Positions 3,326 to 24,414 of a DNA stretch of 25,071 nucleotides are shown piece after piece. Position 1 is the stretch's first letter, and every line of letters begins with the position of its first letter. Source of the DNA: a virus (Duplodnaviria; Caudoviricetes); IMG/VR virus record IMGVR_UViG_3300033076_001536, positions 1-25,071 of that record; one strand, written 5' to 3'. Made by a program: the position numbers and the translations under genes. The notes beneath the pieces are model-generated. The model did no database searches, was not told the origin of the DNA, and saw nothing but the letters and a program-made list of their open reading frames with translations.

Positions 3326-3673
3326 ATGCCCATCCCCATCCCCAGCGACGACGAAATCGACTTCATCATCGAAACCAAACTCATGGACGGAGACGCCTAC
3401 TCCTGCGATCTCCTCAACGCAGAGATCGAAGCCGCCCGCCAAGCCCTCGCCGACGCCAGCGTCACCAGCAGCTCCGCCCTCGGCCACAGCGCCACCGTAG
3501 ACGCCGAGCTCGCCCGGGCCAACCTCAACACCCTCCTCCTCGCCCGCAAAACCTGCCAAGCCCGAGCCGCCGCCGTCGCCGCCGAACTCAGCGAACAAGA
3601 AATCGCCAACGCCCAGCCCTTCGAGGCACCCATCAACCGCTCCTTCAACTTCGCCGCCCGCCGCCTAATGTGA
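3326..3673 (+). CDS. Head-tail joining protein (gpW-like position)
   Basis: Start moved to ATG 3326 (cctcccATG), 115 aa; helix-hairpin-helix pattern (...ASVTSSSALGHSATV...); lies between terL and portal. Confidence 0.6.
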   Translation: MPIPIPSDDEIDFIIETKLMDGDAYSCDLLNAEIEAARQALADASVTSSSALGHSATVDAELARANLNTLLLARKTCQARAAAVAAELSEQEIANAQPFEAPINRSFNFAARRLM

Positions 3674-3757
3674 ACGTCACAACGGAGGCACGCGAATAAT
3701 GGGACACCCGAATTCACCAACCGACTTCGACGCGTTGCCTCCCGTGGCTGGTTCTGG
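3669..3757 (-). mobile_element. attC: attC-type integron recombination site (89 bp)
   Basis: Minus strand: R'' CCAGAAC, 5-nt spacer CAGCC, L'' ACGGGAGG (8 nt, one extra base), CA-A-CGCG (second extra base), 36-nt variable loop, CGCGTG, L' CCTCCGT (7 nt), 6-nt spacer TGTGAC, R' GTTCACA. This is canonical attC spacing with both extrahelical bases. Confidence 0.8.
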
Positions 3758-3952
3758 CCGGGAGTGGATCGTGGAAATTCCATGCCGGATAGTCCACACG
3801 ATGACCGTCCGCGCTGACTCCAGAAAAGAGGCTGAAGCAAAGCTACGCAAACGATCTGAACACATGGACGACTTTACAGCGATCGACCACCAAACCGTCA
3901 GCTTCGGGATCGGACGCGTGATCTGCGAAGACGCAAAACGAAATCGCCAGAA
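3675..3952 (-). mobile_element. Integron-type gene cassette (~278 bp) integrated in the phage head module
   Basis: Bounded by G|TT crossover points on the minus strand; GTTCTGGC (3751-3758) is the exact reverse complement of GCCAGAAC (3946-3953); the segment lacks the C-rich bias of its flanks. Confidence 0.72.
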
Positions 3953-3956
3953 CTAG
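3699..3956 (+). CDS. Small cassette-encoded hypothetical protein
   Basis: 85 aa; GGAGG at 3684-3688, 10 nt before the ATG; core WIVEI...TMTVRADSRKEAEAKL resembles small beta-beta-alpha phage proteins; stop lies just past the cassette boundary. Confidence 0.7.
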   Translation: MGHPNSPTDFDALPPVAGSGREWIVEIPCRIVHTMTVRADSRKEAEAKLRKRSEHMDDFTAIDHQTVSFGIGRVICEDAKRNRQN

Positions 3957-4105
3957 TTGATCACCGACAGATTTGTCGATTATGACGCGTATTTGCGCGT
4001 AAACCAACATTTCACCTCCGATCCCTGACCTCCGATCCCTGACCCCTGACCTCTGCCCCCTGAGGTCACCGCCATGCCCCTGTCATTGACACCGCCCCTG
4101 CGGCA

Positions 4106-5653
4106 ATGACACCGCAGCCCACGTCCACTCTTCCGCCCACTGGCTACCTCCAGACCGCCACCGGCCTCATCATCCCCGCAGGCACCAACGACGTCGCCTT
4201 CTCCCCGCCCTTCGGTTACGCTGGGGCTCCTGGCAACTACACGGCCGCTGTTAAAGATCCCGCCCAGGCCTCCATTTATTTTCCAGAGAGGCGCAGCGTC
4301 TTCGACATCACCCCCGACGACCGGCTCACCATCCTCGACAAAGCCCGCTGGGCCACCCGCAACACTGGCTTGGGCAACCGCATCAACGAAGGCATCGCCG
4401 AAATGGTCGGCGCCCTCGCCCCCAGTCCCACCACCACCGACGAAGAATGGAACCAGCTCGCCAAAGCCGCGTTTGAAGACGTCACCTCCTCCGCACTCAT
4501 CTTCGACCAGGCAGGCGATGAAAACTTCGAGCAACGCCAGCTCACCCTCACCAAGAAGTTAGTCGAAGATGGAGACTGCCTGCTCGCCCTGACGGAAACA
4601 GCCTCCGGACTGCCATCCACCGCCCTTTACGAATCCCCCCAGATCGGCAACCCCAAAGGGAAATCCGCCCGCGACGGATGGCTCGACGGCGTTCAACTCT
4701 CCGGATCCTACCGCCGGCAAGCCTTCGGCATTCTCGATGCCAACCTCTGCCCCACAGACTTCAGCATCTCCGCATTCGACGCCATTTTCTTCGGCGATCC
4801 CAAACCCCACGCCCCCCGCGGCGTCTCCAAGTTCGCCACCTTCGTCAAGCGCCTCATGGACGTCCGCCAGATGGACAACGACCAGCTCGCAGGCATCCAC
4901 GCCGCCAACCTCGTCGGCTTCTACCTCAAAAATAACACCCTCGAAAACGCCAAGGCCAAGGCACTCATGGACGAAGCCGTGTTTAAAACAAAATTCGGCA
5001 ACACCCCCACCGCCGACGGCGACCAGAAATCCTACAAATCCGAAGACATCTTCCGCCACTCCGGCACCATGGCAGACCTCAACATCGGTCAGGAATTCGC
5101 CACCGTCCACGACGAGCGCCGCCACCCCAACACCGCCGAATTCGTCAGCTACTTCATCCGCGACATGGCCTGGGGCACCGGCTTTCCGCCCGAAGTCATC
5201 TGGTTCCTCGGCCAGCTCGCAGGCCCCGGCGTCCGCTTCATGATCAAATCCGGAGAAAAAGCAGCCAAACGCTACCGCCGCATCCTCCGCGAGCGCTACT
5301 GCCAGCGCATCTGGGTCTGGGTCATTTCCAAGCTCGTCAAACTCGGACGCCTCCGACCCTGCAACGACAACCGCTGGTGGAAATGCGAATGGTTAGAGCC
5401 CGAATCCCTCACCATCGACCTCGGCCGCGACATCAAAGCAGGCCTCGAAGAGATCCGCGCCGGAGGCAACACCTACGCCAACTGGTATGGCGAGGTAAAA
5501 CAAGACTGGAAAGAGCAATTCCGCCAAAAAGCCGCAGAACTCAAGGAAGCCGCAAAGCTCGAAAAAGACAACGACCTCCCCCCCGGCTCGCTCCTCGGCC
5601 AAGTCATCATCCAGCTCAACCCCAACAACATCCAACCCGCCCAAGCTGCGTAA
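4106..5653 (+). CDS. Portal protein, lambda family
   Basis: 515 aa; motifs ARWATRN, EDGDCL, DGVQL, PRGVS, W..P..LTIDLGRD; position after terL/gpW. Confidence 0.92.
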   Translation: MTPQPTSTLPPTGYLQTATGLIIPAGTNDVAFSPPFGYAGAPGNYTAAVKDPAQASIYFPERRSVFDITPDDRLTILDKARWATRNTGLGNRINEGIAEMVGALAPSPTTTDEEWNQLAKAAFEDVTSSALIFDQAGDENFEQRQLTLTKKLVEDGDCLLALTETASGLPSTALYESPQIGNPKGKSARDGWLDGVQLSGSYRRQAFGILDANLCPTDFSISAFDAIFFGDPKPHAPRGVSKFATFVKRLMDVRQMDNDQLAGIHAANLVGFYLKNNTLENAKAKALMDEAVFKTKFGNTPTADGDQKSYKSEDIFRHSGTMADLNIGQEFATVHDERRHPNTAEFVSYFIRDMAWGTGFPPEVIWFLGQLAGPGVRFMIKSGEKAAKRYRRILRERYCQRIWVWVISKLVKLGRLRPCNDNRWWKCEWLEPESLTIDLGRDIKAGLEEIRAGGNTYANWYGEVKQDWKEQFRQKAAELKEAAKLEKDNDLPPGSLLGQVIIQLNPNNIQPAQAA

Positions 5654-11314: not shown

Positions 11315-11326
11315 CACACCGCGCAC

Positions 11327-11380
11327 CTGACCTCTGACCTCTGACCTCTGACCTCTGACCTCTGACCTCTGACCTCTGAC
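11327..11380 (+). repeat. (CTGACCT)7 heptamer tandem array
   Basis: Seven perfect units plus CTGAC, intergenic. Confidence 0.95.
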
Positions 11381-11391
11381 TCTCTTACCCA

Positions 11392-11970: not shown

Positions 11971-12045
11971 CAGGAAATTTAATACCCTGAATAATACCTT
12001 TTTCAGAAACTATTTTCCATTCCCCAAAAATAATTTTTCCACCCT

Positions 12046-12087
12046 CTGACCTCTGACCTCTGACCTCTGACCTCTGACCTCTGACCT
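12046..12087 (+). repeat. (CTGACCT)6 array
   Basis: Six perfect units ending 9 nt before ATG 12097. Confidence 0.95.
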
Positions 12088-12096
12088 CTCCCTCCC

Positions 12097-14487: not shown

Positions 14488-14632
14488 CTCACCCATTACC
14501 GTGTCGGTTAGGCCGTCAGGCCTGCCGAGAGCCCCGGACTAGGCTCGTCAATCGCCGCATCATATCCGGATGGTGCGGCGAAACTACATCCCCCCATCAC
14601 CTGCCAATCTTACCCTTCCAACACTAAACGAA

Positions 14633-15067
14633 ATGGCATCCGTCAACAAAGTCATCCTCATCGGGAACATCACCCGCGCCCCAGAACTCCGCTACACGCC
14701 CAAAGGCACCGCTTGCACCGAGATCGGCCTCGCCATCAATCGGAAATGGAAAGATGATAGCGGAGCCACCAAAGAAGAAGTTACGTTTCTCGACATCACC
14801 TTCTGGGGAAAAACCGCCGAGACCATCAGCAAATTTTGCCACAAAGGCGATCCACTCTACGTCGAAGGCCGCCTCCAAATGGACACCTGGGAAGACAAGA
14901 CCAGCGGCCAGAAGCGATCCAAAATCCGGATCATCGCCGAGGAATTCCAATTCCTAAAATCCGCCACCAGCAACGGAGCCAGCAACGGAACCACCGCCCG
15001 CCAAGCCGCCCCAGCAAACACCCCCGCTGCCACCACCACCGGAACCCGCGACGAATACCCCTTCTAA
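14633..15067 (+). CDS. ssb: Single-stranded DNA-binding protein
   Basis: 144 aa from ATG 14633; NKVILIGNITRAPELRYT, KGDPLYVEGRL, C-terminal DEYPF tip. Confidence 0.97.
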   Translation: MASVNKVILIGNITRAPELRYTPKGTACTEIGLAINRKWKDDSGATKEEVTFLDITFWGKTAETISKFCHKGDPLYVEGRLQMDTWEDKTSGQKRSKIRIIAEEFQFLKSATSNGASNGTTARQAAPANTPAATTTGTRDEYPF

Positions 15068-15333: not shown

Positions 15334-16167
15334 ATGATCCTCGACTTCCAAACTGGCGATCCCATTTTTGCCGCTGCCTGCGCCTCACTCGGTATGCCCT
15401 GCCGATTCGATCCCATGGAGCACAAGCCCACCGCCTCCGCCAAGCGCAACCAGCTCTACAAGACCTGGCACATCGCCCGCTCCGAAGACGGCGCGCATGA
15501 TCCCCGCAGCATCCTGGAAGAGCTTTCCAACGGCAACCTCGCCCAGACCGCGCCCGCCCATCCCATTTTCTCAGCCCTGGCTGCGATCGAATCCTACGCC
15601 GCCCTAGCCGCGCATCCCAGTTACGAGCTCTCCCTCGTCCCCTTCTTTCCCACCGCCTTCCGAGCCAAAACTAACCGCATTTGCACCCTCCGCCCCCCAC
15701 GGCAGAATGATGGTCGTTTAAATCACATTGAGCACACACTGGAGCGAAAAATAATAAGGATGGTCCCGCAATACGCCGCCGTAGCCGCCGTCTGCGGCTT
15801 CCGCTTCTACAGCACGATTGGAGAGCCATCCGTCCTCATGAGCGATTCCGTAGCCTTCCCCGGCCTCAGCATCCTCCAGCTCGTCGAATGGTTCAACCAC
15901 TTCGCCTCCATGGCCAACGCCGGCGGCATCATCCATCCCGGCTCCGTCACCGTCGCCCACACCCTCCCCGGATTCCCCCCAGGCGAACACCCAGCCCACT
16001 ACGCCCTAACAGCCATCCGCATCTTCCAAGCCTACTCCCAGGCCCAAGCCCCCACCCGCTTCCTCTTCACCGGCACCTTCTCCGCTCTCGTCCCCACCAA
16101 ACTGGACCCATCCGAGCAAGACCGCACCCTTCGCTTTCTCACCCAAGGCGGCTCCGCCCTCCTCTGA
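15334..16167 (+). CDS. Hypothetical protein with internal duplication
   Basis: 277 aa; two copies of AA..a..G and HP...AL.AI..Y/F motifs; stop supplied by the first heptamer unit. Confidence 0.75.
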   Translation: MILDFQTGDPIFAAACASLGMPCRFDPMEHKPTASAKRNQLYKTWHIARSEDGAHDPRSILEELSNGNLAQTAPAHPIFSALAAIESYAALAAHPSYELSLVPFFPTAFRAKTNRICTLRPPRQNDGRLNHIEHTLERKIIRMVPQYAAVAAVCGFRFYSTIGEPSVLMSDSVAFPGLSILQLVEWFNHFASMANAGGIIHPGSVTVAHTLPGFPPGEHPAHYALTAIRIFQAYSQAQAPTRFLFTGTFSALVPTKLDPSEQDRTLRFLTQGGSALL

Positions 16168-16205
16168 CCTCTGACCTCTGACCTCTGACCTCTGACCTCT
16201 GACCT
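16164..16205 (+). repeat. (CTGACCT)6 array
   Basis: Six perfect units forming almost the whole spacer between two genes. Confidence 0.95.
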
Positions 16206-16210
16206 CTGCC

Positions 16211-18972: not shown

Positions 18973-19686
18973 ATGCAAAACGTCCATTCCCACTACCGCG
19001 CCGGATTCAACAACCAAACGTACCAATTCATTGGCACGCGCGGAGTCCCGCGCAGCGTCTCCGGCCTTGCCACCTTCCAAGAAAAAGTAGCCTGGCGCGG
19101 CACCTTCGCCTGGATGGCCAACACCGCCTTCCCCATTGGGAAAAAGCATCCTAACTCCAACTACCCCTACTTCTTCGCCCAGCAACTCCTCGGCGATATC
19201 GTCCCCTCTTGGACCGGGGAAGTCTGGCAAGGCACCCTGGAATTCGCCGGCGTCTTCAATCCCGGGAAAACCATGGTTTCCGAAGAAATCGGCACCTACA
19301 TCCAAGGCAAAGCCTTCCCCAAAATCGCCGGCGGCACCTACGGCACGCCCAGCATCATTCTCCCCGGCCGCACCAGCAACGTCAACGACTCGCAGGTCAA
19401 CCAGCTCGTCCCCAGCTACAGCCGCAGCTACATTTCCACCACCGCTCCAGAGCTCCCATTCGTCGATTCCTTCGGCGTCGAAACCAAGCCCCTCGGCTGG
19501 GTTGCCCCCATGACCCCAGCCGCCCTAACGTGGCTTTTCCCCCAGTACGCCACCTACACCTATCCCAACGGTTGGTATCTCGCATCCCGCACGACCAAGC
19601 AAATGCGCCTCTCCGACGGCACCCTCATCCCCCTCTACGACGTCTCCGAACAATGGCTCTACGTCCCCGCCGCCTCCACCCTCTGA
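18973..19686 (+). CDS. Putative tail-tip/distal tail protein
   Basis: 237 aa aromatic, beta-rich; directly after the tape measure gene. Confidence 0.55.
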   Translation: MQNVHSHYRAGFNNQTYQFIGTRGVPRSVSGLATFQEKVAWRGTFAWMANTAFPIGKKHPNSNYPYFFAQQLLGDIVPSWTGEVWQGTLEFAGVFNPGKTMVSEEIGTYIQGKAFPKIAGGTYGTPSIILPGRTSNVNDSQVNQLVPSYSRSYISTTAPELPFVDSFGVETKPLGWVAPMTPAALTWLFPQYATYTYPNGWYLASRTTKQMRLSDGTLIPLYDVSEQWLYVPAASTL

Positions 19687-19731
19687 CCTCTGACCTCTGA
19701 CCTCTGACCTCTGACCTCTGACCTCTGACCT
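19683..19731 (+). repeat. (CTGACCT)7 array
   Basis: Seven perfect units; the first contains the upstream gene's TGA. Confidence 0.95.
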
Positions 19732-19787
19732 CTGATTTCCGTCTTCCTAACTTTCTCACTCTCTAACTCCCTCACTCCCTTTCCGCC

Positions 19788-20330: not shown

Positions 20331-20355
20331 AGCACCGCATACCCACCGCGCACGC

Positions 20356-20397
20356 CTGACCTCTGACCTCTGACCTCTGACCTCTGACCTCTGACTC
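20356..20397 (+). repeat. (CTGACCT)5 + CTGACTC array
   Basis: Runs directly into TTGACTCCC at 20402. Confidence 0.92.
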
Positions 20398-20458
20398 CTG
20401 ATTGACTCCCTCCCTCCACTAAATCCTCGCAACCCTCACCTCTCACCTCCCAACTTTT

Positions 20459-20968: not shown

Positions 20969-20976
20969 TCCGAGCT

Positions 20977-21018
20977 CTGACCTCTGACCTCTGACCTCTG
21001 ACTCCTGACTCCTGACCT
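20977..21018 (+). repeat. CTGAC(CT/TC) x6 array
   Basis: Four CTGACCT and two CTGACTC units. Confidence 0.92.
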
Positions 21019-21027
21019 CTCCCTCCC

Positions 21028-24045: not shown

Positions 24046-24351
24046 ATGAAAAAATGCTTCACCATCCTCGCCTGGGCCATCCTCCCAGGGGCATTCACAC
24101 TCCTCTGCTGCATCCTCGTAATCGACTACATGCCGCCCATGGACACCGACGAATCCTCCTTCGCCCGCTCCGAATCCATCGACCTCTGCGGCCAGCCCCA
24201 GGACGAACCATCCGACGAAAACGAGGACATCGAAGACCCACCCCAAACCTGGGCCGAAGCCCACTGCGCCCCCCACCACTACAAGCCCCCCGAGGCACTA
24301 GTCCCCGATCGCTGGCACCCAGCAAATACTCTCCTCAGCCAAAAGCCCTGA
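24046..24351 (+). CDS. Membrane-anchored acidic protein
   Basis: 101 aa from ATG 24046; N-terminal TM segment, Asp/Glu-rich region. Confidence 0.55.
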   Translation: MKKCFTILAWAILPGAFTLLCCILVIDYMPPMDTDESSFARSESIDLCGQPQDEPSDENEDIEDPPQTWAEAHCAPHHYKPPEALVPDRWHPANTLLSQKP

Positions 24352-24404
24352 CCTTCCGTCCTCCGTCCTCCGTCTTCTGACCTCTGACCTCTGACCTCTG
24401 ACTC
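24348..24404 (+). repeat. Mixed heptamer array: CTGACCT, (TCCGTCY)3, (CTGACCT)3, CTGACTC
   Basis: First unit contains the upstream TGA; the array ends 10 nt before the endolysin ATG. Confidence 0.9.
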
Positions 24405-24414
24405 ACTTCTTCCC

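Follow-up and report, generated by a model that had tools for sequence, protein, structure and literature searches.

A phage genome has, between its genes for head completion and portal, what is probably a one-cassette slot, made of an attI-like target and a gene bounded by an attC site. The gene lies on the bottom strand and its start is inside the attC loop. The cassette is exchanged, and an integron integrase (IntI) of the host is the likely agent; translation probably takes place on the message of the head operon through a stop-start hand-over. Three parts of this reading are inferred, namely that host IntI carries out the recombination, that the gene is transcribed from the head operon and that ribosomes are relayed into it.

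RESULTS

The phage record and its head genes

The window, i.e. the whole stretch of DNA analysed, is an entire linear virus record of 25,071 bases, estimated to be 41% complete. A lambda-type terminase gene (862-2919), the portal gene, an S49 protease gene and a capsid gene all lie on its + strand. The slot and its flanks have the following parts:

3326..3673, + strand: upstream gene, likely for a head-completion protein, judged from its position between terminase and portal; no family hit
3669..3757, − strand (top strand): attC site, crossover 3674/3675
attC parts on the + strand: AAC 3673-3675; 6-nt spacer; L' 3682-3688; stem to 3694; loop 3695-3730
attC 3' arm on the + strand: unpaired 3735 (T) and 3742 (C); 5-nt spacer; GTT 3751-3753
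3682..3688, + strand: L' box as read on the coding strand, containing GGAGG 3684-3688, predicted to be paired in the mRNA
3670..3699, + strand: 9-codon ORF in the AAC frame, a predicted relay; its GTG overlaps the head-gene TGA and its TAA 3697-3699 overlaps the ATG
3675..3952: cassette between the two crossovers, 278 bp
3699..3956, + strand: cassette gene, 85 aa; residues 1-19 come from attC, residues 20-78 belong to a small family weakly like DpnD/PcfM
3951..3981, − strand: proximal part of the attI-like target, also found in Verrucomicrobiales chromosomes; crossover 3952/3953; supplies TAG 3954-3956
3953..4009: 57-nt unit, ending at the second AAC 4006-4008
4106..5653, + strand: portal gene, the downstream flank (PF05136, phrog_21)

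Small genes resembling that at 3326-3673 adjoin the portal gene in distant prophages too. The last base of its TGA (3671-3673) is at the same time the first base of the AAC box of the attC site. No tyrosine recombinase or integrase gene was found in the contig, which is 41% of the estimated genome. Searches of viral contigs and metagenomes returned no close relatives of the cassette gene or of the portal gene as loci, the word-index match being the record itself, and GenBank phages gave no match; the terminase matches there are at 20–25% and indicate no host. The match of the attI-like target to chromosomes, together with portal matches of 25–33%, points to a member of Verrucomicrobiales as the likely host.

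Several features were noticed elsewhere in the window. A gene for a single-strand binding protein (14570-15067, PF00436) lies among the tail-region genes, pyrimidine-rich 7-nt tandem repeats fill many intergenic gaps just 5' of start codons, and a REP-like palindromic element of 30-49 nt (family D3) is present in six copies after gene ends. The 7-nt intergenic repeat was found in 0 of the 5 bacterial genomes examined.

7-nt repeat gaps: 4019-4050, 11325-11385, 12040-12090, 16160-16210, 19680-19735, 20355-20405, 20972-21020, 24350-24405
D3 palindrome copies: 6844, 8677, 9886, 13830, 14460, 20303

The attC site and a gene reversed relative to it

A scan of both strands of the 25 kb for attC geometry returned one site, with its top strand on the minus strand, from 3757 to 3669 (89 nt), and 30 shuffles of the sequence returned none; the attC described in a previous, sequence-only reading of this DNA is thus present. 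The conserved AAC and GTT are found in its R''/R' boxes, and its L''/L' stem has unpaired bases on one arm and spacers of 5 and 6 nt. The base at the first unpaired position is C, unlike the G that is usual there. R'' (3751-3757) exactly complements the far cassette end at 3947-3953 (7/7), and we therefore delimit the cassette as 3675-3952. Folding energy alone is modest (z from –1.4 to –2.3) and would not single the site out, and Rfam gave no family match. The GC skew of the cassette is –0.04 versus –0.35 and –0.27 in its flanks.

According to the rule given in PMC5027507, the unpaired bases, which sit on the arm opposite AAC, identify the bottom strand. With AAC read on the + strand, 3735 and 3742 fall on that opposite arm, which makes the + strand the bottom one; the same rule, applied to chromosomal cassettes, puts their genes on the top strand. 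In a classical cassette the gene is on the top strand and ends before R''; here it is on the bottom strand. The full HMMER search found 11 relatives of the ORF at 3699-3956 and a widened alignment holds 24, all of them over residues 20-78, and the minus-strand ORF at 3677-3865 has no homologue. The relatives start a median of 5 residues before a conserved Trp (20/24 within 10), and the window protein starts 22 before it. In-frame starts before this residue (Trp23) are limited to ATG 3699, TTG 3735 and GTG 3744, each inside attC; from GTG 3744 to Trp23 there is no further start codon. Because the 24 aligned relatives share the domain and the usable starts are confined to attC, we consider the ORF on the + strand to be the real gene. 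Two outcomes that had been named as fatal to this assignment, a real gene on the minus strand and a start downstream of the site, are both contradicted by these data, and the claims that the gene is inverted relative to its own attC and that its ATG lies in the attC loop hold. The first ∼19 codons had been attributed to the site; we count 59 nt (19.7 codons) of the ORF within it.

We tentatively read the product as a small accessory protein. Four of the 25 family members match PF14207 (DpnD/PcfM) weakly (best E 0.019) and a DpnD/PcfM-like protein is an Atlas neighbour at 0.87, while the window protein itself has no PF14207 match and none in PDB, PADLOC, PHROG or NCBIfam. The likeness to DpnD/PcfM-like small proteins is thus a weak one at family level and serves as a lead only.

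The target is a conserved attI-like element

The sequence beyond the far crossover is not particular to this phage. The 57-nt unit recurs, with 6 differences, between unrelated flanks in sequencing runs X2 and X5, and 3951-3981 has matches in 5 of the 301 genomes from the order of G001 (Luteolibacter), which we take to be Verrucomicrobiales. Within 2 mismatches, three genomes have 33 (G451), 3 and 1 copies of the proximal part, and the reversed control has 0-1. Those chromosomal copies that are shown lie just before GTT and a top-strand gene, in some cases followed by attC, and have no partner arm. A reading of 3951-4009 as a second, broken attC was rejected, given the missing partner arm in the chromosomal copies. 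One degenerate G451 copy is located 185 nt before an IntI N-terminus (E 3.6e–20); only a fragment of this IntI is present, and next to the full-length intI of G466 the sequence is a different one. On sequence evidence, 3951-3981 is best read as a conserved element of attI type and not as a chance site. The sequence-only reading had not noticed the attI-like character of 3953-4009.

The triplets AAC-TAG are invariant in 6/6 aligned chromosomal copies, so the stop that the cassette gene borrows is built into the host site. The earlier statement that TAG 3954-3956 comes from the target is confirmed in this way, the stop lying beyond the crossover 3952/3953. The phage copy is too short for the promoter-like part of the chromosomal element and a promoter scan of the insert gave no match, in agreement with the view that no Pc-like element drives this gene. 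Seven distant prophage portal loci had no attI-like match.

These features also set the element apart from known types. A SALIN has a single attC and no other att nearby; here there is one attC, but the attI-like target abuts it. A complete integron has its own intI and Pc; the 41%-complete record has no tyrosine recombinase, and the insert has no promoter-like match.

The target bears as well on the notion that an ordinary cassette was inserted in reverse, either by top-strand recombination or into a random secondary site, or that a chance hairpin accompanies a minus-strand gene. Top-strand insertion does occur at low frequency (PMC5027507) and single cassettes at GWT sites have been described (bioRxiv 2022.09.11.507474), but top-strand insertion flips gene and attC together, while here the gene is reversed relative to its own attC and has no start outside it. 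Taken with a target that is a conserved element rather than a random triplet and a minus-strand ORF lacking homologues, this largely refutes such an origin, which we regard as highly improbable.

In G451 (L062, L067, L069, L079-L084) we observed a unit of ∼200 nt consisting of attI plus a promoter-like part, dispersed in 33 copies. In most copies the unit stops at the AAC that directly follows the intI start codon; L063 (G466) has an attC joined at that point. It looks as if attI itself may move like a cassette in G451 and G466. The phage attI-like unit 3953-4009 is flanked by AAC at both ends. Removal of this unit together with the cassette would leave a short perfect inverted repeat at the end of the head gene, possibly the original target.

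The slot is exchanged among relatives

Contigs from five runs were aligned to the region, which run X1, perhaps the source of the record, spans whole; the slot contigs are short and have a low depth of 2-4. Three contigs from two other studies track the head gene (95–100% alike) to 3676, 3676 and 3678 and then diverge, and two contigs come in from other DNA at 3948 and 3950. In both of the latter the 30 letters shown stay open in frame to the same TAG. The two left-hand loose ends of run X2 are known only as a mixed consensus, and the loose end of run X3 is shaped like another attC arm and is identical to the start of the site in locus L016. The cassette of the window itself occurs in 1/5 runs, with no close relative, and no joints that would mark an empty slot were seen among the five runs. 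The sequence thus changes at both crossovers in contigs of two other studies, which means that the slot content is exchanged as a unit at these points. The cassette therefore appears to be swapped among relatives, and the host integron integrase is the likely agent; that the changes fall at the AAC boxes is indirect evidence for IntI acting on the bottom strand.

A stop-start overlap recurs in phage-type attC sites

A metagenome scan for the attC family of the window gave 14 hits, three of which (L049, L050, L051) are true members with unrelated genes; the other 11 proved to be chance on inspection and were dropped. Exact motif searches of viral contigs gave 0 hits, another motif search gave five, all chance matches without the AAC arm, and the family was not found in 401 genomes of the phylum. 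In the four members known, the ATG follows GGAGG by 6-10 nt and the same frame runs through the 3' arm, with different loops. The three other sites measure 77, 77 and 78 nt versus 81 in the window, and 16/16 stem pairs are kept in the four, one of them by a compensatory change, which is no more than shuffles give. L051 lies next to phage-family genes; for L049 and L050 no phage-family hit was obtained.

A sister family, defined from the X3 allele, comprises 11 viral and 24 genome loci. For a wider comparison all sites in the loci were taken and duplicates removed, giving 33 phage-type sites in 15 loci and 51 sites in 26 loci of the genome set. Of the two strands, the bottom one has the longer ORF at 29/33 phage-type and 9/51 genome sites, and the first stop in the frame of the AAC codon falls inside the site in all 33 phage-type cases. 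At 18 of these 33 sites, which come from loci picked by two patterns and are not independent within a locus or family, that stop overlaps a downstream ATG; in 5 more the two are within 7 nt, and at the remaining 10 the gene mostly starts just after the site. When site interiors were shuffled, overlaps averaged 1.4 with a maximum of 5 in 500 shuffles. Chromosomal sites have a stop-ATG overlap in one of 51 cases (L028, itself reversed) and no stop at all in 25. The AAC frame is the longest open frame upstream of 24/33 phage-type sites, and also of 23/51 chromosomal ones. The conserved device across phage-type sites is thus an AAC-frame stop overlapping a loop ATG. The window has it too: TAA 3697-3699 overlaps ATG 3699, which had been missed in the sequence-only reading.

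Two further loci deserve a mention. The viral contig L006 carries at 281-2977 a full reversed array of seven attC sites of the same polarity in 3 kb, with all genes on the bottom strand. L084 (800-919) is a chromosomal cassette with a normal top-strand gene, and its attC contains, in the loop of the bottom strand, a stop and an ATG of phage type, a sequence arrangement which suggests that phage and host cassette pools may exchange sites.

The L' box as a proposed Shine-Dalgarno sequence

It had been proposed that the L box doubles as a Shine-Dalgarno (SD) sequence, the only clear one before any gene of the region. GGAGG (3684-3688) lies 10 nt before ATG 3699, within the 5-10 nt spacing of SDs, and scores –9.5 kcal against a generic anti-SD. 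This is stronger than in all 29 other genes of the window, 27 of which lack an SD; the exceptions are the genes at 83 (–8.5 kcal) and 23283 (–6.1 kcal), so the box is nearly, but not quite, the only clear SD. Its sequestration in an mRNA hairpin agrees with prediction, in which GGAGG is fully paired.

In the corresponding mechanism, ribosomes stopping at TGA 3671-3673 free the L' box and initiation at ATG 3699 is de novo. It is favoured by the position of GGAGG 6-10 nt before the ATG in 4/4 family members, by a strength that precedes 1.7% of 229 other ATGs, by an SD-like score (–4.4 or better) at 10/23 in-site starts versus 2/29 ordinary genes, by a predicted opening of the stem when a ribosome covers the message to 3685, and by the report that the contribution of SDs to re-initiation differs by gene (PMC6728339). 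However, the four sites share near-identical arms, and GGAGG is accordingly one inherited sequence held by pairing. Outside this family, 6/19 in-site starts are SD-like versus 24% of random ATGs. The X3 allele at the very same slot matches the start of the L016 site, whose gene begins after the site. Verrucomicrobiales were found to be without SDs genome-wide in the 7/7 species reported in PMC10798248, and Akkermansia is listed as SD-scarce in PMC10783764. The gap from TGA to ATG is 25 nt, and one of ∼20 nt almost abolished re-initiation in the E. coli and Haloferax experiments described in PMC10666635. We therefore take the SD to be real as a pattern and not a general device, given that the phage genes (2/29 with an SD), the likely host order and the starts outside the family mostly do without; as the main mechanism the proposal is not supported, and initiation through a freed L' box is unlikely. 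GGAGG is in our view the L' box of its family and at most helps re-initiation.

Possible ribosome entry from the head gene

Opening of the start region is predicted to cost 20.7 kcal, more than for 28/29 other genes. Cover positions correspond to the usual range of ribosome footprints. With a ribosome at TGA 3671-3673 covering to 3682 the predicted cost is 9.8 kcal and GGAGG stays paired, and with cover to 3685 it is 6.9 kcal and the stem is predicted to collapse, relay or not. A ribosome at TAA 3697 lowers the predicted cost to 1.5–3.5 kcal. The idea that ribosomes terminating at the head gene open the hairpin is thus weakened in its original form, since the distance is 25 nt and cover to 3682 leaves the SD paired, and direct coupling across this gap is unlikely. 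Coupling as such survives in the form of the stop-start overlap in the loop.

The head gene does not itself overlap the cassette start, lying 25 nt away, but the overlap is reached through the 9-codon ORF. Its GTG at 3670-3672 overlaps TGA 3671-3673, another feature overlooked previously. Starts overlap stops at 6/29 gene ends in this phage, and an overlap in the right frame is expected by chance in ∼5% to 1 in 15 cases, which makes the relay suggestive rather than shown. For this one case we regard a relay from GTG 3670 to TAA 3697 as the likely route. GTG 3670 is on the target side and would therefore serve any cassette. At 2916-2957 we noticed a comparable arrangement, where the terminase stop overlaps a GTG opening 13 codons that end 5 nt past ATG 2950; it is either a relay or chance.

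The high opening cost, the presence of the cassette in 1/5 runs with no close relative, and a GTG overlap that can be due to chance would all fit a silent passenger, i.e. a first cassette whose stop-start device is unfed and which is tolerated as both head genes are spared. This is improbable, since the gene is intact and runs in the same direction as the operon, the frames of three different cassette ends lead to one and the same TAG, and at 29/33 phage-type sites it is the bottom strand that has the longer ORF. Translation by way of the stop-start overlap is the reading we prefer, and expression from the head operon message, as had been suggested, is probable.

DISCUSSION

The element described here works like an integron and its sites have attC features, yet it differs from the classical cassette, the complete integron and the SALIN alike. 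What is new is the target, a conserved attI-like element, and a reversed gene that starts in the attC loop with a stop-start overlap. The usual view of integron cassettes is that the gene lies on the top strand and is driven by Pc. Phage attC clusters themselves are known from Qi et al. 2023 (PMC9892861), where phage attC sites are reported to recombine with attI1. The CALINs and integrons described there similarly comprise small attC-bounded genes in phage genomes without integrase. In contrast, the parts of that article covered here mention no gene reversed relative to its own attC, no start within a site and nothing on translation, and our case is one cassette at an attI-like target in a head operon. 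With SALIN/attG, as presented by Loot et al. (bioRxiv 10.1101/2022.09.11.507474), the slot shares a single attC without nearby integrase and, probably, expression from a resident promoter. It differs in reusing a conserved attI-like target instead of a random GWT triplet and in having its gene on the bottom strand. Within the literature searched, outside which lay most subscription papers and the supplements of PMC9892861, we found no description of genes reversed relative to their own attC.

Translational coupling at recombination sites has a precedent in class 1 integrons, where according to PMC8876359 ORF-11 across attI1 and short ORFs in attC couple translation to the next cassette gene. 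There, as here, a short ORF crosses the recombination site and the stop comes from partner DNA, and ribosomes are coupled past the hairpin, as we predict for the phage. The phage arrangement mirrors this on the bottom strand: the start codon of the real gene is in the loop, the stop is contributed by attI from the 3' end of the message, and there is no Pc. Stop-start overlaps of the ATGA and TAATG type are the same as in the termination-reinitiation at –4/–1 overlaps treated in PMC6728339 and PMC10666635. Here the overlap is built into the recombination site, and coupling would therefore survive gene swapping.

The slot could operate as follows. Cassette genes would end open in the AAC frame and borrow the stop of the next site, be it the TAG of attI or the next attC-loop stop. 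A ribosome travelling in the AAC frame would melt the 5' arm and restart at the overlapping ATG. In the window, which has no cassette upstream, the GTG on the head-gene stop would feed ribosomes into the AAC frame via the 9-codon ORF.

More tentatively, Verrucomicrobiales phages may carry a portable, integrase-less mini-attI together with a reversed cassette pool of their own. Each attC would then be a translation junction, at which the AAC frame of one gene closes and translation passes to the overlapping loop start of the next, and the target would give the entry start and the exit stop. This wider picture is a possibility to which we lend somewhat less than even credence. Were the reversed pool real, it would account for many odd N-terminal tails of small phage proteins, which would be attC arms that are translated.

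The stop-start rule (18/33 versus 1/51) is sharp and offers a means of distinguishing phage-type from host-type attC sites. If the wider picture is true, the phage operon would provide for the expression of any cassette that enters the slot, cassettes of the host, being oppositely oriented, would be silent on arrival, and the host integrase would shuffle two separate gene pools on opposite strands. A reversed phage-side pool on the same sites would then be a route by which phages swap accessory genes with the host enzyme.
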